Sequence record: NC_073064.1 | Reading direction: 5' to 3' (one strand) | From: Escherichia phage vB_EcoS_PTXU06 | DNA length: 45,904 bases | Part shown: piece after piece, positions 4,994 through 45,904 of the stretch | How the letters are laid out: every line of letters starts with the position of its first letter | Position numbering within the stretch: the first letter of the stretch is position 1 | Made by a program: the position numbers and the translations under genes | Notes under the pieces: model-generated | The model's input: only the letters and a program-made list of their open reading frames with translations | What the model was told of the DNA's origin: nothing | The model's database searches: none

Positions 4994-5545
4994 ATGGCAG
5001 AAATTAAAGTTAAAGGCCGTCGCGCTAAACTGGACGGACGAGTAGCAGTTACCCCGCGCCGTAAACCAGGCGAGCAAACCGAGCATACCAATCTCGGACC
5101 TGAAATCGAGTACGGAAAGCGCCGTAAAGGCGGCAAATGTGGACGCCCTACTGACTACCGATCCGTTTACTGCGACCAGCTTCGCCGCTATTTTGCCGAC
5201 GCCGACGCCTGGCAGGTAAACTACTCCGATAAAGGCGCTGCGCAAGTAATCCCCCGCAACAAAATGCCAACCTTCGGTCGATTTGCCGCGGAAATCGGCG
5301 TGGGCGTAGCTTGCCTGTATCGCTGGGCGCGTGCGCATGAGGAGTTCGCCGAGGCGATGGCGGACGCTATGGAGTTGCAGAAAACTTTCCTGATGGAAGC
5401 TGGCGGCGTGACCATCGCGGCGGGCTTCGCTACCTTCCTGCTTAAAGCCAACCACGGCGTCCGGGACGACGTACCGCTGGATGACGACGAAGATGATAAC
5501 GGCGACGTCGTTGTGGAACCTACCGGCAAAGGCCAGGGTGATTAA
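4994..5545 (+). CDS. putative terminase small subunit
   Basis: Immediately upstream of and overlapping the large terminase; basic N-terminus; start at 4994 has the better RBS (track start 4973). Confidence 0.5.
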   Translation: MAEIKVKGRRAKLDGRVAVTPRRKPGEQTEHTNLGPEIEYGKRRKGGKCGRPTDYRSVYCDQLRRYFADADAWQVNYSDKGAAQVIPRNKMPTFGRFAAEIGVGVACLYRWARAHEEFAEAMADAMELQKTFLMEAGGVTIAAGFATFLLKANHGVRDDVPLDDDEDDNGDVVVEPTGKGQGD

Positions 5546-6930
5546 TGCGTAACTATGCGGCAGAACATCGCGCCCTTGAACGAGCGATCGCAAAGCGAAA
5601 CCGACCGCCGCGCCCGACACGCGTTGCGCAGGCCGTCCGCCTTTACCAGCCTGATTGCTTGCCGCACCAGGTTGAACTACTGCGCGACACGAAGACTAAA
5701 ATCCTCGGCCTGTGTTCCGGCTTCGGTGGCGGCAAGTCATGGGTTGCGGCGCGAAAGGTCATCCAGCTTTTAACACTGAACCCCGGTCATGATGGCATCG
5801 TGACAGAACCGACTATTCCACTTCTGGTCAAAATCATGTACCCGGAATTGGAAAAGGCATTCGACGAGGCGGGCTTCCGGTGGAAGTTCAATAAGCAGGA
5901 CAAGATTTATAGCGTGCTGGTGAAAGGCAAGTGGACGCGCGTAATCTGTGAGTCAATGGAGAACTACACCCGCCTTATCGGGGTTAACGCCGCATGGATT
6001 GTTGCCGACGAGTTCGACACCACGAAACAAGACGTCGCAATGGCGGCATATCACAAATTGCTTGGTCGTCTGCGTGCGGGCTTTGTCCGCCAGTTCGTCA
6101 TCGTGTCCACGCCTGAAGGCTTCCGGGCGATGTACCAGATTTTCGAAGTGGAGAAAGACAGCCAGAAGCGTTTGATCCGGGCGAAGACTACCGATAATCA
6201 CCACTTACCGGCAGACTTTATTGACACGCTGCGCAGCCAGTACCCGGCTAACCTGATTGACGCGTACTTGAACGGCCTGTTTGTAAACCTTACGTCTGGC
6301 GCGGTTTACAAGATGTTCAATCGTGAGGAGAACGCCAGCACCGAAGAAGTGCAACCGGACGACACGCTGATTATCGGTATGGACTTTAACGTCACGAAAA
6401 TGGCGGCGGTTGTGTACGTCAGACGGCAGCGCATCACCGAGAACAAGGAGTTCCGCGACGAGATCCACGCAGTGGATGAATTTGTGGACCTGTTTGATAC
6501 CCCGGCTATGATTGAGGCGATCGAGGAGCGCTACCCCGATCATTGTGCTGCCGGTAGGGTCGTCGTTTACCCGGATAGCAGCGGAAAATCCCGCAAAACG
6601 GTCAACGCGTCGTCGTCCGATATCGCGCAACTGGAAGATGCGGGCTTTGAGGTGGAATACGACAGCGTTAACCCGCCTGTGAAAGATCGATTGATCGCGA
6701 TGAATACGATGATGTGCAACTCGAAGGGCGTGCGCCAGTATTTTGTCAACCTGGATAAATGCCCTACACTAGCGAAATGTCTGGAACAGCAGGTTTACGA
6801 CCTGAAGAAAGGCGAGCCGGATAAAACCGCCGGTGTGGACCACATGAACGATGCCGCGGGCTATCCAATTGCGCACCTGTTCCCAGTGATTCGCCCAATC
6901 GCCGTTGTTCCAACTGTAGACTTCTACTAA
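5545..6930 (+). CDS. terminase large subunit
   Basis: 461 aa; P-loop GFGGGKS, Walker-B-like WIVADEFD, C-terminal nuclease-like acidic residues; followed by portal. Confidence 0.85.
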   Translation: MRNYAAEHRALERAIAKRNRPPRPTRVAQAVRLYQPDCLPHQVELLRDTKTKILGLCSGFGGGKSWVAARKVIQLLTLNPGHDGIVTEPTIPLLVKIMYPELEKAFDEAGFRWKFNKQDKIYSVLVKGKWTRVICESMENYTRLIGVNAAWIVADEFDTTKQDVAMAAYHKLLGRLRAGFVRQFVIVSTPEGFRAMYQIFEVEKDSQKRLIRAKTTDNHHLPADFIDTLRSQYPANLIDAYLNGLFVNLTSGAVYKMFNREENASTEEVQPDDTLIIGMDFNVTKMAAVVYVRRQRITENKEFRDEIHAVDEFVDLFDTPAMIEAIEERYPDHCAAGRVVVYPDSSGKSRKTVNASSSDIAQLEDAGFEVEYDSVNPPVKDRLIAMNTMMCNSKGVRQYFVNLDKCPTLAKCLEQQVYDLKKGEPDKTAGVDHMNDAAGYPIAHLFPVIRPIAVVPTVDFY

Positions 6931-11211: not shown

Positions 11212-11284
11212 TTTGTTTTTCCTTCATGTCTCTGTTGGTGTGCAACCAATATATTGCAACCAATACCCGGATTGCAAGCGAATT

Positions 11285-11312
11285 TTGCGATTATTTTTAT
11301 CGCTGATAATAT
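11285..11312 (+). promoter_or_regulatory. candidate promoter for the scaffold/capsid operon (-35 TTGCGA, 16-bp spacer, -10 TAATAT)
   Basis: Read directly; two TGCAACCAAT direct copies lie just upstream (11241-11264). Confidence 0.3.
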
Positions 11313-11367
11313 TAAAGGCGTGAAGTCGAGCGGGAGGCCCGCTCTGCCACAATCCCAGGGGGATAGC

Positions 11368-12072
11368 ATGAAACTTACTAAAGCAGAATATGACGCGTTG
11401 CCGGAAGGTATGAAGGCGCTTTTTGTTGCCGATGGCGACGGGTATAAATCAACGTTCATGACCGCAGAAGAAGTACAGGCGGAAATCAAGGGTCTGAAAG
11501 AAAACAACGCGAAGCTGGTGAGCGAGAAGAAAGCAGAAGCCGAACGCCGCGCCGAAGCTGAGCGCCTTGCGAAAGAGAAAGAGGAAGCCGCCGCGCGCAA
11601 AAATGGCGACCTCGAAGCGATCGACAAGTCCTGGAAAGATAAGTTTGCTAAACACGAAGCAGACACATCGGGAAAAATCGAAGCCTACCGCAAGCAGATC
11701 CACGATCTCACCATCGGCAGCGCTGCCAAAGACCTGGCGTCGAAGCTGTTCGGCAAGAATGCGGGCATCATGCAACGCCACGTAATGGACCGCCTGACGC
11801 TGGAAGACGGCGAAGACGGCAGCTTGAAAGTGCGTGTCTTGCAGGATGGCAAACCGTCCGCGCTGACGATGGAAGAGCTTGAAAAAGAGTTCCGTAATAA
11901 CGCCGATTTTGCATCCGTCCTGGCTGGCACGCCAGCCGGTGGCGCGCCTAGCAAACCGACGCAGGTTGTCGAAGATGTGAAGTCGAAAATCACTATGGGC
12001 CATAGCTTCGGTATCACTGACCTTACGAAACAGGCGGGGGATATCATCGCGAAGATGGGCGACGACGAGTAA
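11368..12072 (+). CDS. putative head scaffolding protein
   Basis: Start at the ATG with AGGGGGA RBS (track start 11254 lies in the intergenic promoter region); charged coiled-coil-like sequence; immediately precedes the major capsid gene. Confidence 0.55.
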   Translation: MKLTKAEYDALPEGMKALFVADGDGYKSTFMTAEEVQAEIKGLKENNAKLVSEKKAEAERRAEAERLAKEKEEAAARKNGDLEAIDKSWKDKFAKHEADTSGKIEAYRKQIHDLTIGSAAKDLASKLFGKNAGIMQRHVMDRLTLEDGEDGSLKVRVLQDGKPSALTMEELEKEFRNNADFASVLAGTPAGGAPSKPTQVVEDVKSKITMGHSFGITDLTKQAGDIIAKMGDDE

Positions 12073-16167: not shown

Positions 16168-16530
16168 ATGGCTAAAGCACCACTCTTCACACTTGACCCT
16201 AAGCCAACCTTTAAGCTGCCGATTGAGATCCCGCGCCCTGGCGAGAACGAACCGGGCAAGATGACGTTTACCGTCCGCCACCGACCTATCGACGAGTTTT
16301 CGCAAACCATGCAGGACACCGAACGGAAGCTGTCTGAATATGACGACAATGACCCGGACGGCTTTAACGTTATGGTCGAGGCAATCATGCACGTCGCTGA
16401 AGGCTGGAATCTGCCGGACGAATTTAACGCGGAGAACGTCCGTCGCCTGGTGGTCAACTATCCACGCGCGTTCGGTGTGTTCCACACGTCGTACTATCTC
16501 GAACTGATGGGATTGCGTGAAAAAAACTAA
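16168..16530 (+). CDS. tail assembly chaperone (lambda G-like)
   Basis: 120 aa between major tail and tape measure; ends in a slippery heptamer; start at ATG 16168 with GGAG RBS (track start 16120 lies in the terminator). Confidence 0.65.
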   Translation: MAKAPLFTLDPKPTFKLPIEIPRPGENEPGKMTFTVRHRPIDEFSQTMQDTERKLSEYDDNDPDGFNVMVEAIMHVAEGWNLPDEFNAENVRRLVVNYPRAFGVFHTSYYLELMGLREKN

Positions 16531-16844
16531 TTGAGGCGGCGCGGCGCTTTTACGGCCCGCCGCCACCCTCTGAAGATTTAGCCGCGAGTTTATGGGGTGC
16601 GGCCCCCGAAGATGTTTGTCCGCCTGTTGCGCTATGGCCCGACAACGCGAAGATAGTCGCAGTCTTCACAGATTGCGCCACGCAATGGCGCACAGGATTT
16701 GGTGGCGCATACGGCATCGACTACGGCGTGTTGGAGTGGTTATTTAAGATGCACGGTATCGAAAACGAGCAGCGCGCGTTTAAAGATATCAAGCTAATGG
16801 AGCGAATCGCGCTTGATGAAATGGCGCAACAAAACCCCGCATAA
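16168..16844 (+). CDS. tail assembly chaperone frameshift product (G-T-like)
   Basis: The -1 frame is open from 16521 to the stop at 16842-16844 (about 107 codons) and contains W/G/Y-rich T-domain-like sequence; entry by -1 slip at A_AAA_AAC. Confidence 0.5.
16521..16564 (+). other. programmed -1 ribosomal frameshift signal (slippery heptamer plus downstream GC-rich hairpin)
   Basis: A_AAA_AAC at 16521-16527 in the zero frame of the chaperone; 7-nt spacer; GC-rich stem-loop GGCGGCGCGGCG...GGCCCGCCGCC at 16535-16564. Confidence 0.55.
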
Positions 16845-17160
16845 TGAAGCGGGACGTCCCGCTTTGTCCCGCCCTGTAAAACCGCATATCTAATCACTTT
16901 CATTGCATAAACTCAAAGCGGGACAGGCGGGACGTCCCGTTTTGTCCCACCACGCAAATGCGCATACCTATGCAGTTTTATTGCATAAAGTAAGCGGGAC
17001 AGAAAGCGGGACAGACAAGGGGCGGGACAAAGTGGGACAGCACCCCGTCCCCGCCAGTGCTGCCGCGGTTTTCAGCCGATCGGGACAGGCGGGACAAACC
17101 CCAGTCTTTCAGACTAGACGGGGGTCAGCGGTCCCCCTCGTCTGAGACTGAATAAGGTTT
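16845..17160. repeat. iteron cluster A: about 14 GCGGGACA boxes in both orientations plus a long imperfect palindrome
   Basis: Read directly; 374-bp non-coding gap between the chaperone stop and the tape-measure start; homologous to 45606-45790. Confidence 0.8.
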
Positions 17161-17218
17161 GTTTGAAATTCGCTGATACAATGACAGTCGGCAACTGCAT
17201 AAAAAAGGGGACTGCATA

Positions 17219-19861
17219 ATGGCAGATCAAGCAGCAGGCATCACGCTGAAGGCTGATGTTGCACAAATCAGAACGGCAAATACTGTGCTGGACTCCTTCG
17301 CACAGAAATCCGAGAACACAGAAAACAAGGTTAAGAAATTAAACGACACCCTCGGCAAATCCAAAAATGTGACGAGTGACGCCGCGGGCGGAATGGAGAA
17401 GCTGGCGACTGAATCGCAGCGTGCCGCCGACGGCATGACGAAACAAGAGCGACTTGCCAACCGGTTAGGCATGTCGACCAAAAACCTGGGCTTTGCCTCG
17501 CGTAACGCCGCATTCCAGTTACAGGATATTGCGGTTACGCTTGAGATGGGGATGCCATTGCACCGCGTTATGCTTCAGCAGTTACCACAGCTTACTGGGG
17601 CGTTCGGTGGATTTGGTAACACGCTGCGTTATGTTGCGGGCTTCCTCGGCCCGGTAGGGATCGGCATTGCGGCACTAACGGCAACGCTAGGCGTAGGGGT
17701 GGCGATTACGTCCCGCGCAGAAAACCAGGTCGCAGCGCTTAACAAGACGCTGGCGCTATCCGGTAATATCTCCGGCCTAACAGCTAACCAGATCCTGGTG
17801 TTATCGGAGAACGCCGAGCGCATGGGCGGATCATTCCGCAAGACGCGAGACACAATTCAGGCACTGGCGGCGGCGGGCGTGAAGGCGGGTGCTGACTTCG
17901 GCGCACTGGCTAAGACCGTTAATGACTTCGCGAAGGCGTCCAGCCAGCCGATCGAGGATGTGGTCGCGGCGGTAGCGAAGCTGTCTACAGACCCGGTAGG
18001 CGGCTTGCGAGCATTGGCTGATAAGTATCACGTCGTAAACGAAGCGCAGATCCGGCAGGTACAATCCCTGGTGGATATGGGTCGTGAGACTGAAGCGGTG
18101 GCGCTGGCTAATAAAACAGCCGCGGCGTCGTTCACCACCATGACCAACGATATTAAGTCCAACATGGGAACGCTCGAGCGGTCGATGAACATCGTCACAT
18201 CGGCAGCGAAATCTATGTGGGATGCCATCCTGGATGTTGGACGCGCGCAGTCCTCGAATGAGTCAGAGATGAAAGCGCGTGAATCATTGCAGCGACTGAC
18301 CACGGCTTACTATGCCGAGATGAAAGCGGTAAACGCTGCCGGTGGGGTGATGACCGAAGCGCAGAAAGCGCGTATTAACATGCTTTACAGCGAACTGGTA
18401 GCCCAGGAAAAAGTAGTGGCGTCGCTCACCCTGCGCAACCGTGCCGAGCGTGACAACGCCAACGCCGCGGAACAATCAGCGAAGGCGAACGAGGAGGCCA
18501 ACCGCACCGCGCGGGACCGCGCCGCGTTCGAGAAGGAGTACGCAACCAACGCGAAGAGGCGCGCCGACGAGATCGCCCGCCTCAATTTGCTTAATAAGCG
18601 CGGCGTGATTGACGAGAAAGAGCTTGCCGAGGCGGTGAAGCAGGTAAACGAGCGTTACAAAGACCCCGCCCCGAAGAAGGCCGCCGCCGTTCGAGTCGAT
18701 GCCGGGCTGAAAATGCTGGAGGTCGCACGGAGCGAACTGGCACAGCTTCGAGAATCCGGCAAGCAGATCGAGGCCAACTCTTCGACGCAGACCCGCACGC
18801 AACGAGCGCAAGCGGCCCTTAACAAGCTGATTGCCGACAACGAGCAGTTAATCGCTGCGAGCAAAGAAAGGGCGCTGACGGCAGCAGAGAAGCAGCAATT
18901 AGTCGAGTTCGGACGCGTGAAGGAAGTACGTGAGCAGATCGTCGAAGAAGCCAAATTGCTGGACGCGAAAGAGAAGCAGGTCAAGGCGCACGCGCAGATC
19001 GACGCCTTCGTTAAGAACCAGAACGCCGAGCTAAAAGCCACCGCGGCGGGCTATGCGCTTTCCACTCGCGAAGCGGCTAACCTGCGCGAAGAATTGCAGC
19101 TAATTGACCGCCTTAAGCGGGTGGGCGCTAGCGATACCGATATTGATCTGGCGGTGTCTAAGCTGCGCGAAGTGCAGGAAGCACAGACCGGTGCTAACGC
19201 CTCGCTATGGGATGGATTCAGCCGTGGGCTTAAGGATAGCGTGGATGAAATGGGTAACGGATATACGCAGATGGCGTCACTCACAAAATTCACGTTCGGC
19301 GCTATGCAGGACACGATGAACGAGTTTTTCGAGACTGGCAAGCTGAACGCAAAGGATATGGTTAAGTCCATCCTGAGCGAATTAATCAAGCTGGCTACAT
19401 CGCAGGCGTTCAAGTCCATCGTTAGCGCTTTCGGTGGCGACGGCGGCAAAAACGGATTGTTCGGCGCTATCTTCTCCGGCCTGACTAAGAATGCGGACGG
19501 CGGAGCGTACGCAGGGGGCAATCTCGCGGCCTATTCAGGGCAAGTGGTAAGCCAGCCAACCTTTTTCAGTTATGGCGTCCAGGCGTTCGCTAAGGGGGCA
19601 GGATTGATGGGGGAGGCTGGACCCGAGGCCATCATGCCGCTGAAGCGCGGGCCAGACGGGAAACTGGGCGTTGCCGCTGCCGGTGTAGGCGGGGGAATGA
19701 TTGTAACGACCAACGTTAACATGGGGACCGGTAAGACGGATACCAGTGTTAGCGGACCAGACCCGCGCACCGCGCAGGCGTTCGGGAAGCAAATCACCGA
19801 GTCGGTCAAGGCCGAGATCGTGAAGGCGACGAAACCGGGTGGTGTACTTTACAAACGATGA
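17219..19861 (+). CDS. tail tape measure protein
   Basis: 880 aa, long alpha-helical/coiled-coil character with Gly-rich C-terminal region; follows the chaperone pair. Confidence 0.85.
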   Translation: MADQAAGITLKADVAQIRTANTVLDSFAQKSENTENKVKKLNDTLGKSKNVTSDAAGGMEKLATESQRAADGMTKQERLANRLGMSTKNLGFASRNAAFQLQDIAVTLEMGMPLHRVMLQQLPQLTGAFGGFGNTLRYVAGFLGPVGIGIAALTATLGVGVAITSRAENQVAALNKTLALSGNISGLTANQILVLSENAERMGGSFRKTRDTIQALAAAGVKAGADFGALAKTVNDFAKASSQPIEDVVAAVAKLSTDPVGGLRALADKYHVVNEAQIRQVQSLVDMGRETEAVALANKTAAASFTTMTNDIKSNMGTLERSMNIVTSAAKSMWDAILDVGRAQSSNESEMKARESLQRLTTAYYAEMKAVNAAGGVMTEAQKARINMLYSELVAQEKVVASLTLRNRAERDNANAAEQSAKANEEANRTARDRAAFEKEYATNAKRRADEIARLNLLNKRGVIDEKELAEAVKQVNERYKDPAPKKAAAVRVDAGLKMLEVARSELAQLRESGKQIEANSSTQTRTQRAQAALNKLIADNEQLIAASKERALTAAEKQQLVEFGRVKEVREQIVEEAKLLDAKEKQVKAHAQIDAFVKNQNAELKATAAGYALSTREAANLREELQLIDRLKRVGASDTDIDLAVSKLREVQEAQTGANASLWDGFSRGLKDSVDEMGNGYTQMASLTKFTFGAMQDTMNEFFETGKLNAKDMVKSILSELIKLATSQAFKSIVSAFGGDGGKNGLFGAIFSGLTKNADGGAYAGGNLAAYSGQVVSQPTFFSYGVQAFAKGAGLMGEAGPEAIMPLKRGPDGKLGVAAAGVGGGMIVTTNVNMGTGKTDTSVSGPDPRTAQAFGKQITESVKAEIVKATKPGGVLYKR

Positions 19862-31985: not shown

Positions 31986-32303
31986 TTACGCATAAAAATT
32001 CGGGTCGCGCGCGACGTCTACCAGATACAGGTTGCTGATTCGGTTGCCGTAGTGGCCTGGTGTTCGCTGGCGGCACACAACGGCGTAGCCTGGAGGAATT
32101 GTATTGCCGGTCGCGATAATCCACGCCACGCGTGCGCCCGATAGAGTTTTGCCGTTGCATTCGATGCGCGTGCCGCCATCGGCGGTATTGAGGTTGCCAA
32201 TTTTGCAGCCGGTGGACTTCAGACGAATGACGCCGGTTTTGCTGTCGTAGGAGAATAACTGGTTAGTCATTGCAACCGAAAAATCGATGGCTTCGAATGT
32301 CAT
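31986..32303 (-). CDS. HNH_3-like (homing-endonuclease-like) protein, possibly degenerate
   Basis: 105 aa; ARVAWIIATG and GNRISNLYLV resemble HNH_3 proteins but the canonical D-H is replaced (VCRQ); ATGA-coupled to the upstream methyltransferase-like gene. Confidence 0.4.
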   Translation of the reverse strand: MTFEAIDFSVAMTNQLFSYDSKTGVIRLKSTGCKIGNLNTADGGTRIECNGKTLSGARVAWIIATGNTIPPGYAVVCRQRTPGHYGNRISNLYLVDVARDPNFYA

Positions 32304-32995
32304 TTTAAATTTTCCTCGTTAACCGCTATCGCGAAGCCGCGCGGAGTGAGCGACCTGATTAATTTGGTGCGGGCAGATTTGCCTCCGAGGCGACTATACT
32401 GCTTCGAGTACCCTTTTTCAACGAATACAGGCTTTTTCTCTGGCATACGGAAGCCGTTGCCGGTCCATAAGCAGGTCAGCTTCGGATATGAATCACGGGC
32501 GTTGATGTATTCAGGGAATAGCGGGTGCACGTCATCCTCCGGCAAATAGCCGCCATACTCCCACGGGTCAAACGAGTGGTCAGGCTTACGCCATTGAGTG
32601 GAGAGCACGCTGCGCGGGTTCTCAATCAGATACGGCACTTCAAAGAAATCACCCAGGTAAGCGGCGATCTTCGCGGTGCGTACCGCCTTAAGCTGGAAGG
32701 CAGGGTCGCTGGCGCGTTTGCGCGGGAAAGCTGGCGCACCGCTAACCGCCAGATCCGTACACGGCGGGAATGCATAAATGATGTCCGGCGTGCCGAAATC
32801 ACCATTCATCGCACGGTCCACGAAGTCCAGATCGATAAACTCATTGCGATACCGGATTCCGCGACCATAAATCCGGTAGTCAAGGTAAGACCCGTGATCG
32901 GCTTCGGAGTAGTTGAAGCAATAACACTTATGCCCCATCTCGGCAGCACGCTCAATCATCAAGCCGCTGCCGTCGAACAATGACCAGATTATCAT
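32300..32995 (-). CDS. putative DNA (cytosine-5)-methyltransferase-like protein, copy 1
   Basis: 231 aa; LFDGSG (motif I-like), FPPC (motif IV-like catalytic Cys), LIENP (motif VI-like); unusually short for a C5 methyltransferase. Confidence 0.5.
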   Translation of the reverse strand: MIIWSLFDGSGLMIERAAEMGHKCYCFNYSEADHGSYLDYRIYGRGIRYRNEFIDLDFVDRAMNGDFGTPDIIYAFPPCTDLAVSGAPAFPRKRASDPAFQLKAVRTAKIAAYLGDFFEVPYLIENPRSVLSTQWRKPDHSFDPWEYGGYLPEDDVHPLFPEYINARDSYPKLTCLWTGNGFRMPEKKPVFVEKGYSKQYSRLGGKSARTKLIRSLTPRGFAIAVNEENLK

Positions 32996-33168
32996 TTGCG
33001 CGCCTTTTTAGCTTTCATGTATTCCATTAAATCATCCTGAATATCGCGCTTACTGTCGCGACGCTCGGCGACCAGTTCGTCCAGCGTCCCGCGAGCCTGG
33101 ATAATGTAGACGAATACGGGTCGAGGGTGTCCTGCTTGCATCTGGCGAACCGGCCCGATACGTTCAAC
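32992..33168 (-). pseudogene. duplicated 3' fragment of the helicase gene (last ~58 codons)
   Basis: Identical to 34056-34232; the 90-aa track ORF here is a junction chimera of the helicase C-terminus with out-of-frame sequence. Confidence 0.6.
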
Positions 33169-33367
33169 TGCCGGTCGCGATAATCCACGCCACGCGTGCG
33201 CCCGATAGAGTTTTGCCGTTGCATTCGATGCGCGTGCCGCCATCGGCGGTATTGAGGTTGCCAATTTTGCAGCCGGTGGACTTCAGACGAATGACGCCGG
33301 TTTTGCTGTCGTAGGAGAATAACTGGTTAGTCATTGCAACCGAAAAATCGATGGCTTCGAATGTCAT
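33169..33367 (-). pseudogene. truncated 5' copy of the HNH-like gene
   Basis: First ~64 codons identical to 31986-32303, then broken at the duplication junction. Confidence 0.55.
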
Positions 33368-34059
33368 TTTAAATTTTCCTCGTTAACCGCTATCGCGAAG
33401 CCGCGCGGAGTGAGCGACCTGATTAATTTGGTGCGGGCAGATTTGCCTCCGAGGCGACTATACTGCTTCGAGTACCCTTTTTCAACGAATACAGGCTTTT
33501 TCTCTGGCATACGGAAGCCGTTGCCGGTCCATAAGCAGGTCAGCTTCGGATATGAATCACGGGCGTTGATGTATTCAGGGAATAGCGGGTGCACGTCATC
33601 CTCCGGCAAATAGCCGCCATACTCCCACGGGTCAAACGAGTGGTCAGGCTTACGCCATTGAGTGGAGAGCACGCTGCGCGGGTTCTCAATCAGATACGGC
33701 ACTTCAAAGAAATCACCCAGGTAAGCGGCGATCTTCGCGGTGCGTACCGCCTTAAGCTGGAAGGCAGGGTCGCTGGCGCGTTTGCGCGGGAAAGCTGGCG
33801 CACCGCTAACCGCCAGATCCGTACACGGCGGGAATGCATAAATGATGTCCGGCGTGCCGAAATCACCATTCATCGCACGGTCCACGAAGTCCAGATCGAT
33901 AAACTCATTGCGATACCGGATTCCGCGACCATAAATCCGGTAGTCAAGGTAAGACCCGTGATCGGCTTCGGAGTAGTTGAAGCAATAACACTTATGCCCC
34001 ATCTCGGCAGCACGCTCAATCATCAAGCCGCTGCCGTCGAACAATGACCAGATTATCAT
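33364..34059 (-). CDS. putative DNA (cytosine-5)-methyltransferase-like protein, copy 2
   Basis: Translation identical to copy 1. Confidence 0.5.
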   Translation of the reverse strand: MIIWSLFDGSGLMIERAAEMGHKCYCFNYSEADHGSYLDYRIYGRGIRYRNEFIDLDFVDRAMNGDFGTPDIIYAFPPCTDLAVSGAPAFPRKRASDPAFQLKAVRTAKIAAYLGDFFEVPYLIENPRSVLSTQWRKPDHSFDPWEYGGYLPEDDVHPLFPEYINARDSYPKLTCLWTGNGFRMPEKKPVFVEKGYSKQYSRLGGKSARTKLIRSLTPRGFAIAVNEENLK

Positions 34060-35480
34060 TTGCGCGCCTTTTTAGCTTTCATGTATTCCATTAAATCATC
34101 CTGAATATCGCGCTTACTGTCGCGACGCTCGGCGACCAGTTCGTCCAGCGTCCCGCGAGCCTGGATAATGTAGACGAATACGGGTCGAGGGTGTCCTGCT
34201 TGCATCTGGCGAACCGGCCCGATACGTTCAACGATCTGCGAAAAGTGCTCAAAGTTCCAGGTATCGGAGAAGATTGCCAGGTGATGACCGCCGTCCTGCA
34301 AGTTAAGGCCGTGGCCCGCCGATGCCGGGTGTGCAAACATGATGGGGATCTCGCCTCTGTTCCACGCCTCCATATCCTTATTGCCCTGCTTACCTTTACC
34401 CAACGCAACGCCGTGCGGAAATTTCTTCTTAAGACGTGCCAGGTCATGCTTATACTGATACGCAACGAGCAACGGCGCGCCGTTCAACTCCTCCACGATA
34501 CTTTCCAGCGCGTCCAGCTTCGCGTCGTGAATCTTCACCCACTCGTCGGTCCGTTCGCCGTCTTCGTCGACTTTATACACAGCCCCCGAAGCAAGCTGAA
34601 GGCACTTAATAGTCTTCGATGCAGCGTTCGCCGCCTCCACAGTTCCGCTTTCCAGTTCCGCAAATAACTCCGCTTCGAACTGGTCATAAATCTTGCGGGC
34701 TTTCTTCGGCAGGTCCACAACAACCGGCGTATATATTGGCTTGTCGCATCCGAAGTATTCCGCCGCGTCAACGGTTAGCGACACGTCGGACAGGCGTTGT
34801 TGGATCTCTTTCTCGGAGTTCTTAAGCGGGGCGTGCTGCATAGAGAAGCTGCCAGGCTTAACAGGCTTGCTAATGAACCAGCGATCGGTAAATGCCTTAT
34901 AGCTACTGCCGAGGCGTTCGCCACCGTCGACAAACCACGTTTGCCCCCACAGATCTTTCAAGCCATTTGGCGCTGGTGTGCCGGTAAGGTTAATCCAGCG
35001 CTTGACGTGCTTATGTGCGATCGCCGCCAGTGCGCGTGCGCGCTTACTACCCTGCTTACTTCGGTAGCCTTTCAGCTTAGTGGATTCATCGGCAACAACC
35101 ACCGTAAAGGGCCACGCATCGCCGTAATAGTCGACCAGCCACTCAACCACATCGTAGTTAACACAAACCACGTTAGCGTCGCTCTCAAGCGCGGCAATAC
35201 GGTCCTTCTCCGGTCCGGTGCCGTCTACGACCAGCAGGGATGAGAACCGCCATTTCTCCTGTTCCGGGGGCCATGTACCCGACGCAACACGCAGCGGGGC
35301 CAGCACCAGTACGCGGTCCTCATGATGGGACAGGATGCCAGTCTGGAACATTTTGTTCAGCGCCCACATTGTCGCGCCGGTTTTACCCGACCCCATTGTC
35401 GCCCAGATATTGCATCGCTTATGCTTGAGGATGAACGCGGTAATCAACTTCTGATATTCGCGGCGTCGGAATCGTGCCAT
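34056..35480 (-). CDS. SNF2/DEAD-like helicase
   Basis: Walker A GSGKTG, DExx box VVADEST, C-terminal helicase motif QIVERIGPVRQ; start taken at ATG 35480 (MARFRRR); the track ORF extends to a GTG at 35570 overlapping the upstream gene. Confidence 0.8.
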   Translation of the reverse strand: MARFRRREYQKLITAFILKHKRCNIWATMGSGKTGATMWALNKMFQTGILSHHEDRVLVLAPLRVASGTWPPEQEKWRFSSLLVVDGTGPEKDRIAALESDANVVCVNYDVVEWLVDYYGDAWPFTVVVADESTKLKGYRSKQGSKRARALAAIAHKHVKRWINLTGTPAPNGLKDLWGQTWFVDGGERLGSSYKAFTDRWFISKPVKPGSFSMQHAPLKNSEKEIQQRLSDVSLTVDAAEYFGCDKPIYTPVVVDLPKKARKIYDQFEAELFAELESGTVEAANAASKTIKCLQLASGAVYKVDEDGERTDEWVKIHDAKLDALESIVEELNGAPLLVAYQYKHDLARLKKKFPHGVALGKGKQGNKDMEAWNRGEIPIMFAHPASAGHGLNLQDGGHHLAIFSDTWNFEHFSQIVERIGPVRQMQAGHPRPVFVYIIQARGTLDELVAERRDSKRDIQDDLMEYMKAKKARK

Positions 35481-39906: not shown

Positions 39907-41329
39907 TGCTTAAATCCTCGTCAGTAGCTTCTGACCACGCAGGGCGCGGGTCGTCAATGGGTGCTAATACAGGTTTAGCCGGTGCGCGTGTGATTTTATC
40001 ACACAGCTTCGCCCATACTTTCGGTTTCTCGTCCTTCAGCACCTTCTCGGCATCCGTAGGACTGAGTAATGTTTCTTTGTACATAACATCGCGCTTGATC
40101 CGGGCCTTCGTGAAGATCTCAATCACTTCGCTTTCGTCCGCCCACTTGCGGATCCCTTCCTTACCGGCAACCATTTTGAGGCCCAGCGATTCGCCATCGC
40201 CAGCCATAACCGCCTTGAATACCGCGGACTCGATAGCCTTGATGTGCTGGCGCATTGCGTCTAAACCTTCATACGCCTTGCGCAGTTCCGCGGCAGTCAT
40301 AGCGCCGGAGGCCGCTTCTTTCTTGCCACGCTTCGCACGTCGTGCCGCTTTGCGGGCTTCGCGGGCCATATTGCGGTCATGATTGGCGCATTCTTCCTCT
40401 GTCGCAATACTCACGTCGTCGCCCAGGTCTTCGTCTGTTGCCGTTGGTGGGGTCATCGTGTCGATTGCAGCCTTAGCGCGGGCGCTACACTGGTCCGCAA
40501 ATCTGCACCACTGACACGCATCAACGCTCGGTCGGAAGTCGGCACGGGTGAGTCCCTTTTTGCCGCGGGCGTACGCTTCCAGGGCGGCGATAGCACGCTT
40601 GGACGCAAACTTCGCGAATATCTCCAGGGCTTCTACCGAAATATCCCACTCCGACGCCCCGCCGCAATACGGCTGGAAGATAACCAGGCGCACGGTCGTG
40701 ATGTCGTACATGGATTGCAGCTTGCGCAGCAGGCCGAGCGCATACAGCATAAGCTGTTTGTTTTCTTTCGCCTCGACCTTATGCCGCCCCGTCTTCAGGT
40801 CGCCAACAATCAGCATGTACGTGCCGTCGGTCTTCTTCATGACCATGACCATATCCGCAGTGCCGAACGTCTTAACCCGGTTGCCGTCGATCTCGAAGCC
40901 AGAGTGTAGGACGCGGGTGAGATCGGCGCGCATCTCAAGCTGAACAAACTCCGCCACTTCGAGGAGCGGTCGCCAGTGGTCGATGTACGCGTCGCACTGT
41001 TTCACCATGTCGTCGTTGACCAGTACGCCGCCTTTCGGTGCTTTCGGGTGCGCCTTTACCGGCCCCTTACCTTCGTTCTCGACGTAGCACCCTTTGTACG
41101 TTTTCGCGGTTATCAGCTTCTCACCGGCAATAATGCGGTTTAGCACGACTTCCGATACTGTGTGCATACTCGTACCGTTAATAGCCGCTTGCCCGGATTC
41201 GTTCGGGATACCCTGTTCTACCACCAGGGCGGCGGGGCAACCCATCCATTTTTTAGCACCGGATGGCCCGAGTAATGAATGTTCCGTATTACTACCGGAT
41301 TGTGTTTTGCGCTTCGGTTTAATCGCCAT
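39899..41329 (-). CDS. PD-(D/E)xK nuclease, Cas4/RecB-like with Cys cluster (DUF2800-like)
   Basis: 476 aa; N-terminal HSLLGPSGAKKWMGCP; C-terminal cysteine cluster C...CQWCRFADQC. Confidence 0.55.
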   Translation of the reverse strand: MAIKPKRKTQSGSNTEHSLLGPSGAKKWMGCPAALVVEQGIPNESGQAAINGTSMHTVSEVVLNRIIAGEKLITAKTYKGCYVENEGKGPVKAHPKAPKGGVLVNDDMVKQCDAYIDHWRPLLEVAEFVQLEMRADLTRVLHSGFEIDGNRVKTFGTADMVMVMKKTDGTYMLIVGDLKTGRHKVEAKENKQLMLYALGLLRKLQSMYDITTVRLVIFQPYCGGASEWDISVEALEIFAKFASKRAIAALEAYARGKKGLTRADFRPSVDACQWCRFADQCSARAKAAIDTMTPPTATDEDLGDDVSIATEEECANHDRNMAREARKAARRAKRGKKEAASGAMTAAELRKAYEGLDAMRQHIKAIESAVFKAVMAGDGESLGLKMVAGKEGIRKWADESEVIEIFTKARIKRDVMYKETLLSPTDAEKVLKDEKPKVWAKLCDKITRAPAKPVLAPIDDPRPAWSEATDEDLSNE

Positions 41330-41947: not shown

Positions 41948-42463
41948 TTAATCTTCCAGTTCGAAATAGGTTTCGACGATTTCTTTTAGCTCTTTGTGGA
42001 AGTCTTCGACGTCGTCATCTTCCAGCTTGGCGATTGATTTGATCTCGAACGATTCCAGCAGGTCGTCGAATTCGTCGTTCGCATCGTCGTCATCACCACC
42101 GGCGATAATCGCGGCATACTGTTTGATTTCGTCGCGCATCTCCGCCAGCGGATCGGCATCTTTCTTACCTTTGCCTTTCGCCGGTGCTTTCTTAGACTTA
42201 GCCGGTTTTTCGTCTTCGGCATCGTCGTCGTCATCTTCTACGACTTCTTTTTTAGCCTTACCTTTCGCCGGTGCTTTTTTAGCTTTAGCCGGTTTTTCGT
42301 CTTCGGCGTCATCGTCGTCATCTTCGACAACTTCTTTTTTGGCCTTAGACGGCTTCTTGTCTTCCTGTTTACCAACGGCAGCGCCAACGGTTTCATAATG
42401 CTTTGCAATGGTTTCCAGTGCTACTACGCCGCGAGTGATCAGGTTTACGATTTGCTCAAACAT
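41948..42463 (-). CDS. acidic repeat protein (possible early protein)
   Basis: Start at ATG 42463 with GGAGA RBS; two tandem ~32-aa Lys/Ala- and Asp/Glu-rich repeats; very acidic C-terminus; first gene downstream of a strong candidate promoter. Confidence 0.5.
   Translation of the reverse strand: MFEQIVNLITRGVVALETIAKHYETVGAAVGKQEDKKPSKAKKEVVEDDDDDAEDEKPAKAKKAPAKGKAKKEVVEDDDDDAEDEKPAKSKKAPAKGKGKKDADPLAEMRDEIKQYAAIIAGGDDDDANDEFDDLLESFEIKSIAKLEDDDVEDFHKELKEIVETYFELED
42167..42356. repeat. 2 tandem ~96-bp coding repeats
   Basis: Read directly; encode KKEVVEDDDDDAEDEKPAK(A/S)KKAPAKGK repeats. Confidence 0.65.
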
Positions 42464-42659
42464 GGTATATCTCCGATTGGTTAAGTTTAGGTGTCGGCAG
42501 TTAACTTCGTCGGTGGCCTTAACATATTGCCAGGTTACGCGTTCTCCCGTTCGGGTAGTGGACCTGGTTATATAATCACGGTTGGGAATCCTGACACTTC
42601 GATCCGGCCCCTGCGTTGCCCCTCTCCAGTTTGCGTCCTGCATCCTGTCGACGGGGTGA

Positions 42660-42689
42660 ATATTAGATTGGTTGCATGTGGGGTGTCAA
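42660..42689 (-). promoter_or_regulatory. candidate strong promoter (-35 TTGACA, 18-bp spacer containing ATGCAACCAAT, -10 TAATAT)
   Basis: Read on the minus strand; located in the 400-bp divergent intergenic region. Confidence 0.4.
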
Positions 42690-42806
42690 CAACTAATTTC
42701 AAAAAAAAAAGCGCCGAGGCAAAATGCGACGGCGCTAACCAATAAGAGACAATGAGACGGGAATCATTATTACACGCGTGCGCGCCCGTTTCAATATCCA
42801 AAGGAT

Positions 42807-42866: not shown

Positions 42867-43196
42867 ATGAATGTAAACGACGCAATCGAAATGTTAACGA
42901 AGACTGTTAGCAGTGAAACAAGCCGGTCATGGGCTTATACCGATGCCGTTGGGGCGGTGTTATTTGAAATCGAACGACTGCGCAGTGTCGAAAAAGAATT
43001 ACGCGCCAGGCTGGAATTGCTCAACGGTACGGCAGCGAGCAAGCTGCAAAAGCACAATGAAGAAATGGAAGAATACAAAAAACAGGTTATCCGTTTGCGC
43101 GATGAGGGCAAATCTTGGGCGATGATTGCCGAGTTGACCGGAATTAATCAGAGCACAGTGCGCTCCTGGGTACGCAATAATAAAACTTCTAAGTAA
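42867..43196 (+). CDS. small DNA-binding protein with C-terminal HTH
   Basis: 109 aa; KSWAMIAELTGINQSTVRSWVRN helix-turn-helix; GAGGG RBS. Confidence 0.55.
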   Translation: MNVNDAIEMLTKTVSSETSRSWAYTDAVGAVLFEIERLRSVEKELRARLELLNGTAASKLQKHNEEMEEYKKQVIRLRDEGKSWAMIAELTGINQSTVRSWVRNNKTSK

Positions 43197-43206
43197 GGCC
43201 GCGGCA

Positions 43207-45471
43207 ATGAGCTTAATTAAATTCGCTGTAACACGACCCGCTAAAAAAGGCGAAAAAGCCAGGGCGGAAAACTTCCAGATGACTACCGAAGAGTTTTTCG
43301 AATTTATCAATGATGCGAAAGAAATATCCTCGGTGCATATCAACAAGACGGAAGATAAAGCGGAGTATGCGCGCCGCAAGCGTAAGGCCGATGGCATTGT
43401 GGCTTATACCAGTGATGGGCTGCGCCGCAAGACCAGTGCGGTGGACCGCTCGATCCTGTTCTTTGATATTGACCGCACCGACACCCGCACCCTGCGCCGC
43501 TGCCGTAAGGCGTTCATCGACGCGGGTCTGGAACACGTATTTCACACCACCACCGGCGACCGCCACCCGCTGAAGGGCGGCACGCGTTGCGCCCGTTTCC
43601 TGGTGCTCACTGACAAGCCTGTACCGGCTGAAGACCTGGGCCGCGTCCAGTATGCACTATTACACCAACTGGGTCTGTCAGATGTGGACTTCGACGATTG
43701 CACGAAAGACACAAACCGCCTGATGTACCTGCCACACCAGCAGTCCGTTATTAAGTGCCACTATGGCAAGCGCGCCAATGTGCGTCGACTACTCCGTCTG
43801 GCGGACAAGCTGGGGGTGGAAAAAGAGGAAGTACGCCGCGAGCTTACCCAGGGCGACGACGCAGTGGCAGACGGCATTCTGGACTGGTGCTTCCAGGCAG
43901 GATTCGAGGAGTTATCTTCCGGTCGCGGTTATGAAGTGCCGTGCCCGAACGAACATCTGCACAGCGGCGAAGGGTCGACGGCTATCATGGTCAAGGATGG
44001 CGAGATCCGTTTCAAGTGTATGCACACCGGCAACGAGTGTTGCTCGGAGCTAAATAGACACCAGCACCTTGCGCTACGTCTTATCGGGATACCGGACCAC
44101 CTGAACGTCGAGCCGCACAACATGTCCCGTAAGCAAATCGCCGCCATCCTTCCGGGACTGGACGACGAGGAAGTCGAATCCTTATATGAACATATTGTTG
44201 ATGCGGTTGGCGACGGCGAAGAATACGGCGTGTGCACCGATGCGGATCTGGATAACGAGCCGGTTGCGCTGTTCAGCAAGCACGACCCGATTATCGAGGG
44301 GTTGGTTAACTTTAAATCAACCTGGTATATGGCGGGTGAGTCGAACATCGGTAAGTCTTTCTACGTGCTGGGGCAAATGGGTGCGGTTGCCGCGGGGATT
44401 CCGTTCGGTGGCGCGAAGGTCGTCCAGTCCCATTGCTTCTATTTCGACGCGGAAGGTGGCGAAGCCTCCAACCAGCGTAAGGAAGCATTGCAGATCAAAT
44501 ATGAGCACGACCTGGACAAGCTGCACATTATTGACCTGCAATCACGCGGCTGGGATATCACCAGCAAGTCGGGCTTGCGCGAAGTTATCAGCTTTATAAA
44601 CCGCACCGCTAACGGCGAACCGGTTGGCCTGGTAGCTTTCGACTCACTCAACCAGACTGTTGCGCTGCGGTCCGCCGATGCTAAACCGTTTGACGAGAAC
44701 AACGCCAGCGATATGGGTGAAGTGGTCAAGGCGCTGAAGGCCATTGCGGAAAATACAGGCGGCAGTGCGGGCGTCATCCACCACCCGGCTAAAGGTGCAA
44801 ACGGAAGCAGATCCCCCCGCGGGTCCGGCGCGCTGCATGGCGCTGTCGATTCTGCGTTCTTCCTGGAACAGCCGGACGACAACCAGCCGGGACAACTTAA
44901 CCTGTATCACGAAAAGGCACGTAACGGCATCAAGCAAGCGCCGCGCGGCTTCGTCCTGCTCAAGTGCAAGGTTAAGGTGGATCTCCGCAAGTCCGAGGCG
45001 TTCGAAGCCCACCAGTCCACCAGCACCGGGCCGGACTTCGGTGATGTGGTCGCCGGTTGGGACGTCAAGCCGATTGCCTCCACGCCTCGCGACGAGACTC
45101 TGTACCTCGTACCGGTCGCCCTGGCACCGTTCGCCATCGAACAGGCGAAGGCCGCGGGCAAGGCAGCAGTTAAGGAAGAGAACGCCGCGGGACCGCGCAA
45201 CGAAAAAGAGAAAGTGCTTTATGCGGCACTGGAAAAACTGATGGAAGATAACCCGGACCATACCGGATTCAGTAAATCGGCAATTGTCCGCCAGGCTGGG
45301 CTTGCGAAAGGTGGCACATCGACGAAGGCAATCGACGATATGGTCGAGCGCGGCGTACTCGGTTTTTACACAGACCCACACACCGGGGCCATCTATGGGT
45401 CGTCGAATATCGTCATCAAAACGAATATACCCATCACGCTTTCGGCGACAGATGACGACTTAAAAGATTAA
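43207..45471 (+). CDS. primase-helicase (N-terminal primase-like domain, C-terminal P-loop helicase-like domain)
   Basis: 754 aa; central Cys/His cluster (CPNEHLHSGEG...CMHTGNECC); Walker A GESNIGKS and Walker-B-like LVAFDSLNQT. Confidence 0.75.
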   Translation: MSLIKFAVTRPAKKGEKARAENFQMTTEEFFEFINDAKEISSVHINKTEDKAEYARRKRKADGIVAYTSDGLRRKTSAVDRSILFFDIDRTDTRTLRRCRKAFIDAGLEHVFHTTTGDRHPLKGGTRCARFLVLTDKPVPAEDLGRVQYALLHQLGLSDVDFDDCTKDTNRLMYLPHQQSVIKCHYGKRANVRRLLRLADKLGVEKEEVRRELTQGDDAVADGILDWCFQAGFEELSSGRGYEVPCPNEHLHSGEGSTAIMVKDGEIRFKCMHTGNECCSELNRHQHLALRLIGIPDHLNVEPHNMSRKQIAAILPGLDDEEVESLYEHIVDAVGDGEEYGVCTDADLDNEPVALFSKHDPIIEGLVNFKSTWYMAGESNIGKSFYVLGQMGAVAAGIPFGGAKVVQSHCFYFDAEGGEASNQRKEALQIKYEHDLDKLHIIDLQSRGWDITSKSGLREVISFINRTANGEPVGLVAFDSLNQTVALRSADAKPFDENNASDMGEVVKALKAIAENTGGSAGVIHHPAKGANGSRSPRGSGALHGAVDSAFFLEQPDDNQPGQLNLYHEKARNGIKQAPRGFVLLKCKVKVDLRKSEAFEAHQSTSTGPDFGDVVAGWDVKPIASTPRDETLYLVPVALAPFAIEQAKAAGKAAVKEENAAGPRNEKEKVLYAALEKLMEDNPDHTGFSKSAIVRQAGLAKGGTSTKAIDDMVERGVLGFYTDPHTGAIYGSSNIVIKTNIPITLSATDDDLKD

Positions 45472-45546
45472 ATTTTGCGCGCATTGGTTGCCGATATGGG
45501 AATTCCCATATCGCCAAAAGATTAAATTTTGCGCGCATTGGTTGCC
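45462..45546. repeat. two 31-bp direct repeats flanking a perfect 20-bp palindrome
   Basis: AAAAGATTAAATTTTGCGCGCATTGGTTGCC at 45462-45492 and 45516-45546; GATATGGGAATTCCCATATC at 45493-45512. Confidence 0.85.
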
Positions 45547-45605
45547 ATTTTGGGTGTTTTTATCCGGTCGTATTGGTTGCCGTGTAATGTAAATATAGTG
45601 AATAG

Positions 45606-45790
45606 TTATGCAGTTTTATTGCATAAACTAAGCGGGACAAAAAGCGGGACAGCCAAGGGGCGGGACAAAGCGGGACAGCACCCCCGTCCCGCCCCGGATG
45701 GCGCGGCCTAGAGAGGAGCGGGACAGCGGGACAGCACCCCAGTCTTTCAGACTAGACGGGGGTCAACGGCCCCCCTCGTCTGAGACTGCA
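45606..45790. repeat. iteron cluster B: about 8 GCGGGACA boxes plus a long imperfect palindrome
   Basis: Roughly 85% identical by eye to 16967-17150, with small indels. Confidence 0.8.
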
Positions 45791-45904
45791 TAAAATCCGG
45801 GGATTGCAAAATACACGGCAGCATGATGCGAAGTGCGGTCGCGGATGAACTAGGCAACCAATGCGAGTTGTATTATGCGGAGTGAAAAACGCGGTTTGCA
45901 GATT

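Follow-up and report, generated by a model that had tools for sequence, protein, structure and literature searches.

What does a 374-bp non-coding gap filled with short repeats do inside a phage tail operon, between the tail chaperone gene and the tape measure gene? The question is raised by Escherichia phage vB_EcoS_PTXU06 (NC_073064.1), the whole 45,904-bp sequence of which was analyzed here and is referred to below as the window; it is the complete genome of a Dhillonvirus, i.e., an HK578/SO-1-like virulent siphovirus of E. coli. The gap, designated M1, carries an array of octamer boxes of the GCGGGACA type and a hairpin, and it has a paralogue, M2, located 3' of the primase-helicase gene of the same genome. 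Comparison of these sequences across phages suggests, with a probability of about 0.6, that M1 is an initiator-binding iteron array, acting as a second origin or as an auxiliary site like crr of phage P4. The elements of the two modules in window coordinates are as follows.

16845-17218: M1, the entire non-coding gap (374 bp) from the chaperone T-frame stop to the tape measure start
16849-16872: left cluster of sub-module 1a, with GCGGGACG (+) at 16849 and GCGGGACG (-) at 16855, jointly the palindrome GCGGGACGTCCCGC, and GCGGGACA (-) at 16865
16873-16917: first AT-rich spacer, 67% AT versus 46% in the genome, 3' end ATTGCATAAACT; candidate unwinding element
16918-16950: right cluster of sub-module 1a, with GCGGGACA (+) at 16918, GCGGGACG (+) at 16927, degenerate ACGGGACG (-) at 16933-16940, and GTGGGACA (-) at 16943
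16951-16993: second AT-rich spacer, 63% AT, with the inverted repeat TATGCA-N7-TGCATA at 16969-16987
16994-17096, + strand: boxes of sub-module 1b, with GCGGGACA at 16994, 17006, 17022, and 17089, GTGGGACA at 17032, and TCGGGACA at 17080
17046-17054, - strand: inverted degenerate box GCGGGGACG of sub-module 1b
17102-17150: hairpin, a 49-nt imperfect palindrome, CAGTCTTTCAGACTAGACGGGGG-loop-CCCCCTCGTCTGAGACTG
17174-17182, + strand: extended -10-like TGATACAAT, 37 nt 5' of the tape measure ATG and 24 nt 3' of the hairpin, invariant in 20 genomes
45607-45793, + strand: M2, the M1 paralogue, starting 136 bp past the primase-helicase stop
45607-45625: M2 inverted repeat
45632, 45644, 45660, 45670 (+), 45685 (-), 45718, 45726 (+): M2 boxes
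45740-45788: M2 hairpin

The descriptive part of a first-pass annotation of this DNA held throughout. The T part of the chaperone ends with TAA at 16842-16844 and the tape measure gene begins with ATG at 17219, which gives the claimed 374-bp gap. About 14 boxes in both orientations had been counted, and 12 with no more than one mismatch plus two degenerate ones (ACGGGACG and GCGGGGACG) were found; the palindrome GCGGGACGTCCCGC was located at 16849-16862, the inverted repeat TATGCAGTTTTATTGCATA at 16969-16987, and the imperfect palindrome, described as about 50 bp long, is the 49-nt hairpin. The homologous module was also recovered: 16969-17155 aligned with 45607-45793 at 86.7% identity over 188 nt, and it is the 3' half of M1 that resembles M2 (~87% identity). 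Exact copies of GCGGGACA number 13 in the window against 1.98 expected, a count reached in none of 100 shuffles, with six copies in M1, six in M2, and one elsewhere.

M1 is composed of two parts. Sub-module 1a (16849-16950) consists of inverted box clusters flanking a 45-bp AT-rich spacer, with the left cluster in inverted orientation relative to the right one (16918-16950). The M2-homologous part, sub-module 1b (16951-17150), has the order AT spacer carrying the inverted repeat, four direct boxes, inverted degenerate box, GC-rich 40-mer, two direct boxes, and hairpin; its direct-box spacings (12, 16, and 10 bp) are the same as in M2. The AT enrichment of both spacers over the genome is moderate, and TGCATAAA in the second one is near-invariant across the 20 genomes. 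As single-stranded DNA, the M1 hairpin has a folding energy of -12 kcal/mol (z = -2.6). The two modules are separated by 17 and 29 kb. M2 adjoins the primase-helicase gene, whereas M1, within the tail operon, lies 17 kb from that gene via the window ends and ~26 kb from it the other way.

The first line of evidence on the function of such boxes came from unrelated phages. IMG/VR was scanned by DNA pattern alone (GCGGGACA-N4-GCGGGACA) with an array cut-off of at least eight CGGGAC cores in 300 bp, and 34 loci with arrays of 8-15 cores in 300 bp were obtained, many of them on unrelated contigs of 33-73% GC. Clustering of the open reading frames (ORFs) located no more than 3.5 kb from the 34 arrays yielded a single recurring family, the homologues of the window primase-helicase. 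The loci were distributed as follows.

21 loci (~11 distinct lineages): array -300 to +324 nt from the 3' end of a primase-helicase homologue
7 loci: array abutting the 3' end of a ~660-aa GxGKST protein that matches a PHROG "DNA primase" family
1 locus: array within an O/DnaD-like initiator gene
2 loci: Dhillonvirus M1 copies
1 locus: coding Gly-rich repeat
2 loci: array not assigned to any of these contexts

A primase-helicase or initiator gene thus adjoins the array in 29 of the 31 relevant loci. All of the primase-helicase homologues contain Pfam AAA_25, with N-termini that are Prim-Pol, Toprim plus zinc ribbon, or unassigned. In the seven loci with the ~660-aa protein, an AT-rich run is flanked by inverted box triplets, and the 16873-16917 spacer of M1 with its inverted clusters has an architecture like that of the arrays in L027/L073-type contigs. 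These IMG/VR contigs of 63-70% GC (L027, L037, L073, L074, L118, L066, and L096) carry inverted CGGGACA triplets around a GC-rich palindrome and a long AT-rich run (tagatagatagata...), and the symmetric structure is located directly 3' of the ~660-aa protein, which has no Pfam match. In another set of loci (L021/L031/L045/L100, L111/L113, L035/L084/L088, and L052), the first CGGGAC boxes are themselves coding, as in-frame Arg-Asp codons at the 3' end of the gene for the helicase or initiator, so the protein C-terminus and its presumed binding sites overlap in DNA. A BLAST search with M2 against 72,556 plasmid records found no similar DNA.

The second line of evidence was provided by the reverse test, in which loci were found via the protein (tblastn, protein database, and IMG/VR loci) and the DNA 3' of the stop codon was inspected. 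A non-coding gap of 0.4-0.9 kb follows the helicase gene in the lineages inspected (L149-L151 and eiAU), and 22 of 29 members of the helicase family carry five to seven copies of a lineage-specific 7-mer in the 600 nt past the stop; control coding segments mostly had two to three copies of a 7-mer, with a maximum of six in Ala/Gly-rich stretches. The box sequence follows the helicase lineage, defined by identity to the window protein.

Helicase at least 68% identical: box GCGGGAC
Helicase 49-50% identical: box ACTCGCA (ACTCGCAA-type lineage)
Helicase 37-45% identical: box GGGGAGA, CGGACAA, TCCGACA, AGGGATA, or GGGGATG

In Salmonella phage PhiSTP1 (helicase 43.7% identical), the M2 layout is kept, with GAATAGTTATGCAG, paired boxes, one inverted box, and further boxes, and all of the boxes are GGGGAGA. 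Such wholesale concerted replacement of the boxes is what would be expected of iterons co-evolving with their initiator.

The third line of evidence concerns the tail-operon copy itself. In four further lineages, a module made of the lineage's own sequences is located at the junction of the chaperone T stop and the tape measure gene. The lineage with a 68% identical helicase (L149/L220) has 12 CGGGAC cores, the GAATAGTTATGCAG lead-in as in the window, and a near-identical hairpin; the 46% lineage (L151/L221, one contig) has GGGAT[CA] boxes and a different hairpin; and L222, with a 45% identical tape measure protein, has seven ACTCGCAA-type boxes, which are those of the 49% helicase lineage, and another hairpin. 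Edwardsiella phage eiAU (helicase 45% identical) has CGCCC(C)G boxes in its tail-operon gap, in which a 52-nt segment is 88% identical to the region 3' of its helicase gene. The hairpin in the eiAU gap has the GACGGGGG...CCCCTCGTC core in common with the window, and other lineages have a hairpin without homology at this position. In the two CGGGACA lineages, boxes are more numerous in the tail-operon copy than in the helicase-proximal one (~14 vs 7 in the window and 12 vs 7 in the 68% lineage).

The module pairs were compared by the number of shared 8-mers against control windows. M1 and M2 of the window shared 84 (control maximum 24), the pair of the 68% lineage 99 (control maximum 17), that of eiAU 52 (reached by none of 810 controls), and that of the 46% lineage 17 (reached by 5 of 485 controls); two of three cross-lineage controls gave 3, i.e., no enrichment. 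The match between the two modules was found within the same genome or contig in four lineages, the window included, and across different contigs in the fifth. Such concerted, lineage-specific sequences at both sites indicate that the second module is older than the genus, and that one and the same lineage-specific factor would recognize both modules. The word "inserted" in the first-pass annotation, which suggests a recent event, had to be given up, since the second module predates the genus and also occurs in eiAU, L222, and the lineages with 68% and 46% identical helicases. At the same time, the statement that the two flanking genes are normally contiguous agreed with L145-L147 (chaperone 42-46% identical), where the T stop is directly followed by the tape measure ATG and boxes are absent. 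In L148 (~500-1330), L220 (1353-2101), and L219 (eiAU; 42365-42718), this junction also contains ORFs of unknown function on the reverse strand, and it appears to be a permissive insertion spot.

Within the genus, the module is a constant feature, which answers the question of whether related phages carry it. A 1-kb query around the gap matched 157 phage records with 80-96% identity, in 140 cases over most of its length, and the gap is kept in ~150 Dhillonvirus records. It was also present in all 15 Dhillonvirus loci of IMG/VR, with 11-14 CGGGAC cores in or beside it, except for one locus ended by its contig. Each complete genome checked has exactly two box clusters, and the hairpin pattern gave two exact matches in most Dhillonvirus contigs; a third module copy was considered and rejected, as the extra BLAST "places" (3-4 per record) are M1-internal repeats or M1 split across record ends. 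Among 20 distinct Dhillonvirus sequences, the pairwise identity was 87% for box columns, 79% for spacers, and 95% for the hairpin, the stems of which are near-invariant with most of the variation in the loop; for sub-module 1b, the values were 92% for box columns vs 82% for spacers. A protein-coding gap was likewise rejected, since no ORF keeps its frame, start, or length across the 20 genomes.

Several records start or end inside the chaperone/tape measure module: LR990702 (Maverick), NC_073059 (CHD5UKE2), OX460974 (Kente, L128), and KF772233 (eiAU, L219). In Maverick, CHD5UKE2, and Kente, the cut falls within the stretch duplicated in M2, and Kente is without exactly that stretch; the cuts inside M1 are probably assembly breaks or collapses caused by the 187-bp repeat, not genome ends. 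Additionally, the record OM262541 (vB_EcoS_Zar3M) is collinear with the window at 93.7% identity, the end-to-end alignment with OM262541.1 (L004) containing 2,903 mismatches and zero gaps, whereas natural divergence among Dhillonviruses carries indels. Its M1 has only four intact boxes, and this record may be a reference-guided or error-rich consensus.

Two neighboring genes encode candidate readers of the boxes.

43207-45471, + strand: primase-helicase gene, 754 aa, candidate initiator; Pfam AAA_25, PHROG replicative helicase-primase
42867-43196, + strand: gene of a 109-aa helix-turn-helix (HTH) protein, the rival candidate binder, HTH_23/Sigma70_r4-like, just 5' of the primase-helicase gene

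An AlphaFold2 model of the 754-aa protein (mean predicted local distance difference test score 79) comprises an alpha/beta domain at the N-terminus, a Cys/His cluster (C246, H252, C271, H273, C279, and H285, all invariant), a RecA-type helicase core, and, in the last 90 residues, a helix-helix-helix-strand-strand part. The best fold match of the core in the PDB was the hexameric helicase RepA of RSF1010 (1g8y/1nlf; template modeling score 0.66-0.70), and RecA-like ATPases were matched as well. A winged helix is predicted by the model at approximately residues 666-740 (nt ~45202-45426), and when the last 104 residues were modeled alone, nearly all of the best PDB matches were winged-helix domains. 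Most of these bind DNA, such as histone H1, the winged helix of ORC2, and MarR-family regulators, the latter also as MepR-DNA complexes. This C-terminal domain is the most divergent part of the primase-helicase (23-39% identical vs 44-49% overall). The possibility of one reader domain common to all CGGGACA-associated helicases was examined and rejected: 15 of the domains cluster together, and the Dhillonvirus domain has no detectable sequence similarity to them. As for the HTH protein, a homologue was found among the array-bearing loci in the Dhillon-like L016 only.

A further motif, TTGGTTGC, occurs 20 times in the window against 1.9 expected, mostly in intergenic positions and often in pairs; examples are the sites at 41 (41-48), 11242/11256, 27287, 30286/30298, 31960/31977, 35977, 39630/39646, 42668, 45484/45538/45573, and 45854. 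Several copies have a TTGC(A/T)N -35-like hexamer 16-17 nt upstream of a TATAnT-like hexamer, and the motif is probably a phage-specific promoter or operator. M2 is flanked by copies that face inward.

45484, 45538, 45573 (45484-45580), + strand: TTGGTTGC on the left side of M2
45854-45861, - strand: TTGGTTGC on the right side of M2

Copies of this motif (GCAACCAA) are also plentiful in eiAU, and in other lineages they are again found 3' of the helicase gene.

Taken together, these data led to the following interpretation. M2 would be the canonical origin-type site of the replication module, because arrays of this kind adjoin helicase 3' ends in unrelated phages and because the arrangement matches studied precedents. 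M1 has the same hairpin, inverted clusters around an AT spacer, and about twice as many sites, and we therefore infer that the initiator assembles there too; we likewise infer that the primase-helicase binds the boxes, and that replication starts at M1 or depends on it. In the proposed mechanism, the C-terminal winged helix of the 754-aa protein would read the GCGGGACA boxes, and several protomers on close boxes (8-16 bp apart, in both orientations) would assemble into a ring beside the spacers of 63-67% AT, which would open next to it. The conserved G5/C5 hairpin could then be extruded or recognized as a loading or priming site. M1 would then be a second origin, or else an auxiliary site that acts in cis on replication and cooperates with M2, as crr does with ori in P4. 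The first-pass annotation had proposed an iteron cluster, a protein-binding array, or an origin, and this proposal has gained good comparative support: the boxes mark the 3' ends of primase-helicase and initiator genes in unrelated phages, follow the helicase lineage, and change in concert.

A broader generalization can be offered only tentatively, with the odds somewhat against it: that two initiator-binding modules with lineage-specific sequences in common are kept in related siphoviruses (Dhillonvirus, Eiauvirus, and at least two uncultured lineages), the tail-operon one being a required partner rather than a spare, and that GGGAC-type octamer arrays 3' of AAA_25 primase-helicase genes constitute a widespread, undescribed class of self-loading origins. 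The second module could in that case halve the replication time as another origin, loop to the first as a crr-like site, or tie the loading of the replicative helicase to the expression of distal tail genes.

Several observations weigh against assigning an origin-type role to M1 or the reading of the boxes to the primase-helicase. The shift in GC skew that had been suggested as a check was not seen at M1: the cumulative skew tracks gene orientation, with a minimum at ~42-43 kb and a maximum at ~29 kb. Box spacing is irregular, with no helical phasing. The TTGGTTGC motifs that flank M2 are lacking at M1, so the two modules are not equivalent; M1 is presumably transcribed as part of the tail operon, and it is a matter of speculation that M1 and M2 are activated at different times. 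Cornellvirus PhiSTP1 has a helicase of this family and the array after it, and the second module is absent, which means that a second site is not obligatory for this replication system. In the third cross-lineage 8-mer control, M2 of the window and the eiAU gap shared 20 8-mers, a number reached by 2 of 810 controls; this excess may stem from the common hairpin core and the TTGGTTGC motif. The fold matches of the winged helix are weak by E-value (0.02-0.2, with a Foldseek probability of ~0.99), and no sequence similarity could be detected between the C-terminal domain of the Dhillonvirus protein and the C-termini of other helicases with CGGGACA arrays, so that the use of the same box would imply convergence or divergence beyond detection. 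Finally, the type of the small HTH protein also varies by lineage (HTH_3 where the helicase is 49% or 46% identical, HTH_23 in the 68% lineage and Dhillonvirus), and co-variation within the family therefore does not separate the two candidate binders.

This last point leads to the alternative that the boxes are operators of a lineage-specific regulator, e.g., the 109-aa HTH protein, with M1 acting as transcriptional punctuation in the tail operon: the hairpin would attenuate or be processed, a promoter after it would drive the tape measure gene and the distal tail genes, and M2 would do the same at the end of the early replication operon. A small HTH gene is indeed always located beside the helicase gene and its family changes along with the boxes, but among the array-bearing loci found by DNA pattern, a homologue of the window HTH protein is restricted to L016, and it is the primase-helicase or initiator gene that adjoins the array in 29 of 31 loci. 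M1 lies between highly expressed genes (major tail protein and chaperone) and the tape measure gene, the lower need for tape measure protein being an assumption, and the hairpin is its most conserved part; however, the M2 hairpin has no T-run, and scans with σ70 promoter and terminator consensus sequences called no intrinsic terminator at either hairpin on the + strand (tails AATAAGGTTTG in M1 and CATAAAATCC in M2). The invariant TGATACAAT past the hairpin is a possible promoter for the distal tail genes, although it was not called in the two-hexamer promoter scan, and this conserved extended -10-like element is the sole support left for the late-transcription element considered in the first-pass annotation, as the hairpin is not a canonical intrinsic terminator. 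Moreover, 7-14 sites arranged with inverted clusters and AT-rich spacers resemble an origin more than an operator. On balance, an operator function is unlikely.

A role in packaging is far less probable. Short repeats are clustered at the pac sites of P1 and SPP1, and M1 might similarly be a pac site, or one of two, where the small terminase starts headful packaging on the repeated boxes. Dhillonviruses are predicted headful packagers (PMC10059673; PMC9022532), and the records of Maverick, CHD5UKE2, Kente, and eiAU are linearized inside the module; on the other hand, the breaks of the first three are located in the stretch common to M1 and M2, where an assembler would be expected to fail at a 187-bp repeat. 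There are two copies per genome, both far from the terminase genes (4994-6930), and the boxes accompany primase-helicase genes even where the packaging genes of the phages are unrelated. The cos sequence of EE09, ATCTTAAGGG, is absent from the window.

It is similarly hard to credit that the module is a structured non-coding RNA, e.g., a protein sponge with repeated GGA motifs ending at the hairpin. The + strand RNA fold is very stable (-156 kcal/mol, z = -6.6), most boxes of M2 and sub-module 1b point the same way, in a series closed by a strong hairpin, and the promoter-like TTGGTTGC motifs point into M2. At the same time, a search of the whole window against Rfam 15 gave no match at the gathering score, and a permissive search of both modules returned only sub-threshold miRNA-hairpin matches, which are due to the inverted repeat in sub-module 1a. 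The boxes are found in either orientation and also form perfect palindromes in the DNA, the near-invariant hairpin stems have no compensatory changes, and other lineages swap the boxes for unrelated sequences while their position beside replication genes is kept. A CsrA sponge in particular was rejected, the boxes being palindromic as DNA and being replaced by non-GGA boxes in sister lineages.

Last, M1 might have no function and simply remain from an old duplication or recombination at a permissive junction, which takes foreign DNA in relatives (the reverse-strand ORFs of L148, L220, and eiAU) and can be without a module in PhiSTP1. This idea is scarcely compatible with the retention of M1 in all ~150 Dhillonvirus records and four further lineages, with box changes in step with the helicase-proximal module, and with better conservation of boxes and hairpin than of spacers.

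The genomic setting of the two modules is as follows.

~0.1-29 kb, + strand: lysis, packaging, head, and tail genes
4994-6930: terminase genes
29-42.5 kb, - strand: DNA polymerase A, SNF2 helicase, Gp2.5-like single-stranded DNA-binding protein, and DUF2800 nuclease genes
42.9-45.5 kb, + strand: genes of the 109-aa HTH protein and the 754-aa primase-helicase

The tail chaperone is a G/GT pair, in which G ends at 16530 and the -1 frame runs from the A-run at ~16518 to the TAA that borders M1. A programmed -1 frameshift site, GAAAAAAAC, is located at 16516-16530, just 5' of the G stop, and the T part is a separate small ORF, or is unannotated, in many public records. Elsewhere in the window, a 1,064-bp tandem duplication with 91.4% identity (32105-33168 and 33169-34232) has given two paralogous 231-aa genes (32300-32995 and 33364-34059); their single SO-1 counterpart is annotated as a cytosine-C5 methyltransferase, and Pfam gave no match for either copy.

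The two loci have been noticed before. In the record of Sodalis phage SO-1 (GQ502199), "region A" (11214-11597) and "region B" (40178-40657) are the same two loci, annotated by the submitters, in a note only, as direct, inverted, and palindromic repeats that are similar between A and B; in other GenBank records, pieces of the region are labeled "repeat_region" or "terminator". In the searchable literature, no paper analyzing or describing the two modules and no mapped replication origin for Dhillonviruses or their relatives were found, and a text search for GCGGGACA returned irrelevant primers only. Iteron arrays that serve a self-loading primase-helicase are already known as a kind of element. 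What appears to be new is the association, seen in many phages, of these boxes with AAA_25 primase-helicases, together with the box code specific to each lineage and the conserved, co-evolving second module within the tail operon. Dhillonviruses are common coliphages in therapy and model collections, e.g., BASEL, and concrete candidates are now available for them: two modules, an 8-bp box, and a candidate reader domain. The rule that a lineage-specific box array stands just 3' of an AAA_25 primase-helicase gene may help to locate origins in uncultured phages. The location of M1 also raises the question of multiple or cooperating origins in virulent phages, and of initiation versus heavy late transcription on the same DNA.

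Among known systems, the P4 alpha protein is a multifunctional primase-helicase with a C-terminal winged-helix origin-binding domain that recognizes the octamer iteron TGTTCACC, and this iteron forms two clusters kilobases apart, ori and crr, both of which act in cis in replication. The Dhillonvirus system is similar in having a primase-helicase with a C-terminal winged helix, here predicted, and two separated clusters of one octamer, and it may operate in a P4-like manner; it differs in that the P4 alpha helicase belongs to superfamily 3 (SF3; D5-like) and the Dhillonvirus one is RepA/RSF1010-like AAA_25, i.e., not of the same protein family, and in that the clusters are 17 and 29 kb apart, with one of them in the tail operon. 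The oriV of the IncQ plasmid RSF1010 contains iterons, a GC-rich segment, an AT-rich segment, and priming hairpins, and the helicase core described here has its best structural match in RepA (1g8y/1nlf), with a similar origin logic; however, the RepA helicase, RepB' primase, and RepC iteron binder are separate proteins in RSF1010, whereas these functions are fused, or would be fused, in the phage protein, and the repeats are 20-mers there and 8-mers here. In the Pri/Rep origins of Staphylococcus aureus pathogenicity islands, which use self-loading helicases, lineage-specific iterons are located immediately 3' of the helicase gene and flank an AT-rich region, but the helicase family is another one, the origin is single, and the host is Gram-positive. 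Lastly, ORF904 of pRN1 and related phage replication proteins combine primase, helicase, and winged helix and use an essential stem-loop origin 3' of their own gene (PMC4234260). Replicons of this type and Bordetella phage BIP-1 share with the window both this domain combination and the site directly 3' of the gene itself (PMC4234260). The difference is that an archaeo-eukaryotic primase and an SF3 helicase act there at a single site with a mapped stem-loop, whereas the Dhillonvirus genome carries iteron arrays with a hairpin, and carries them in two copies.

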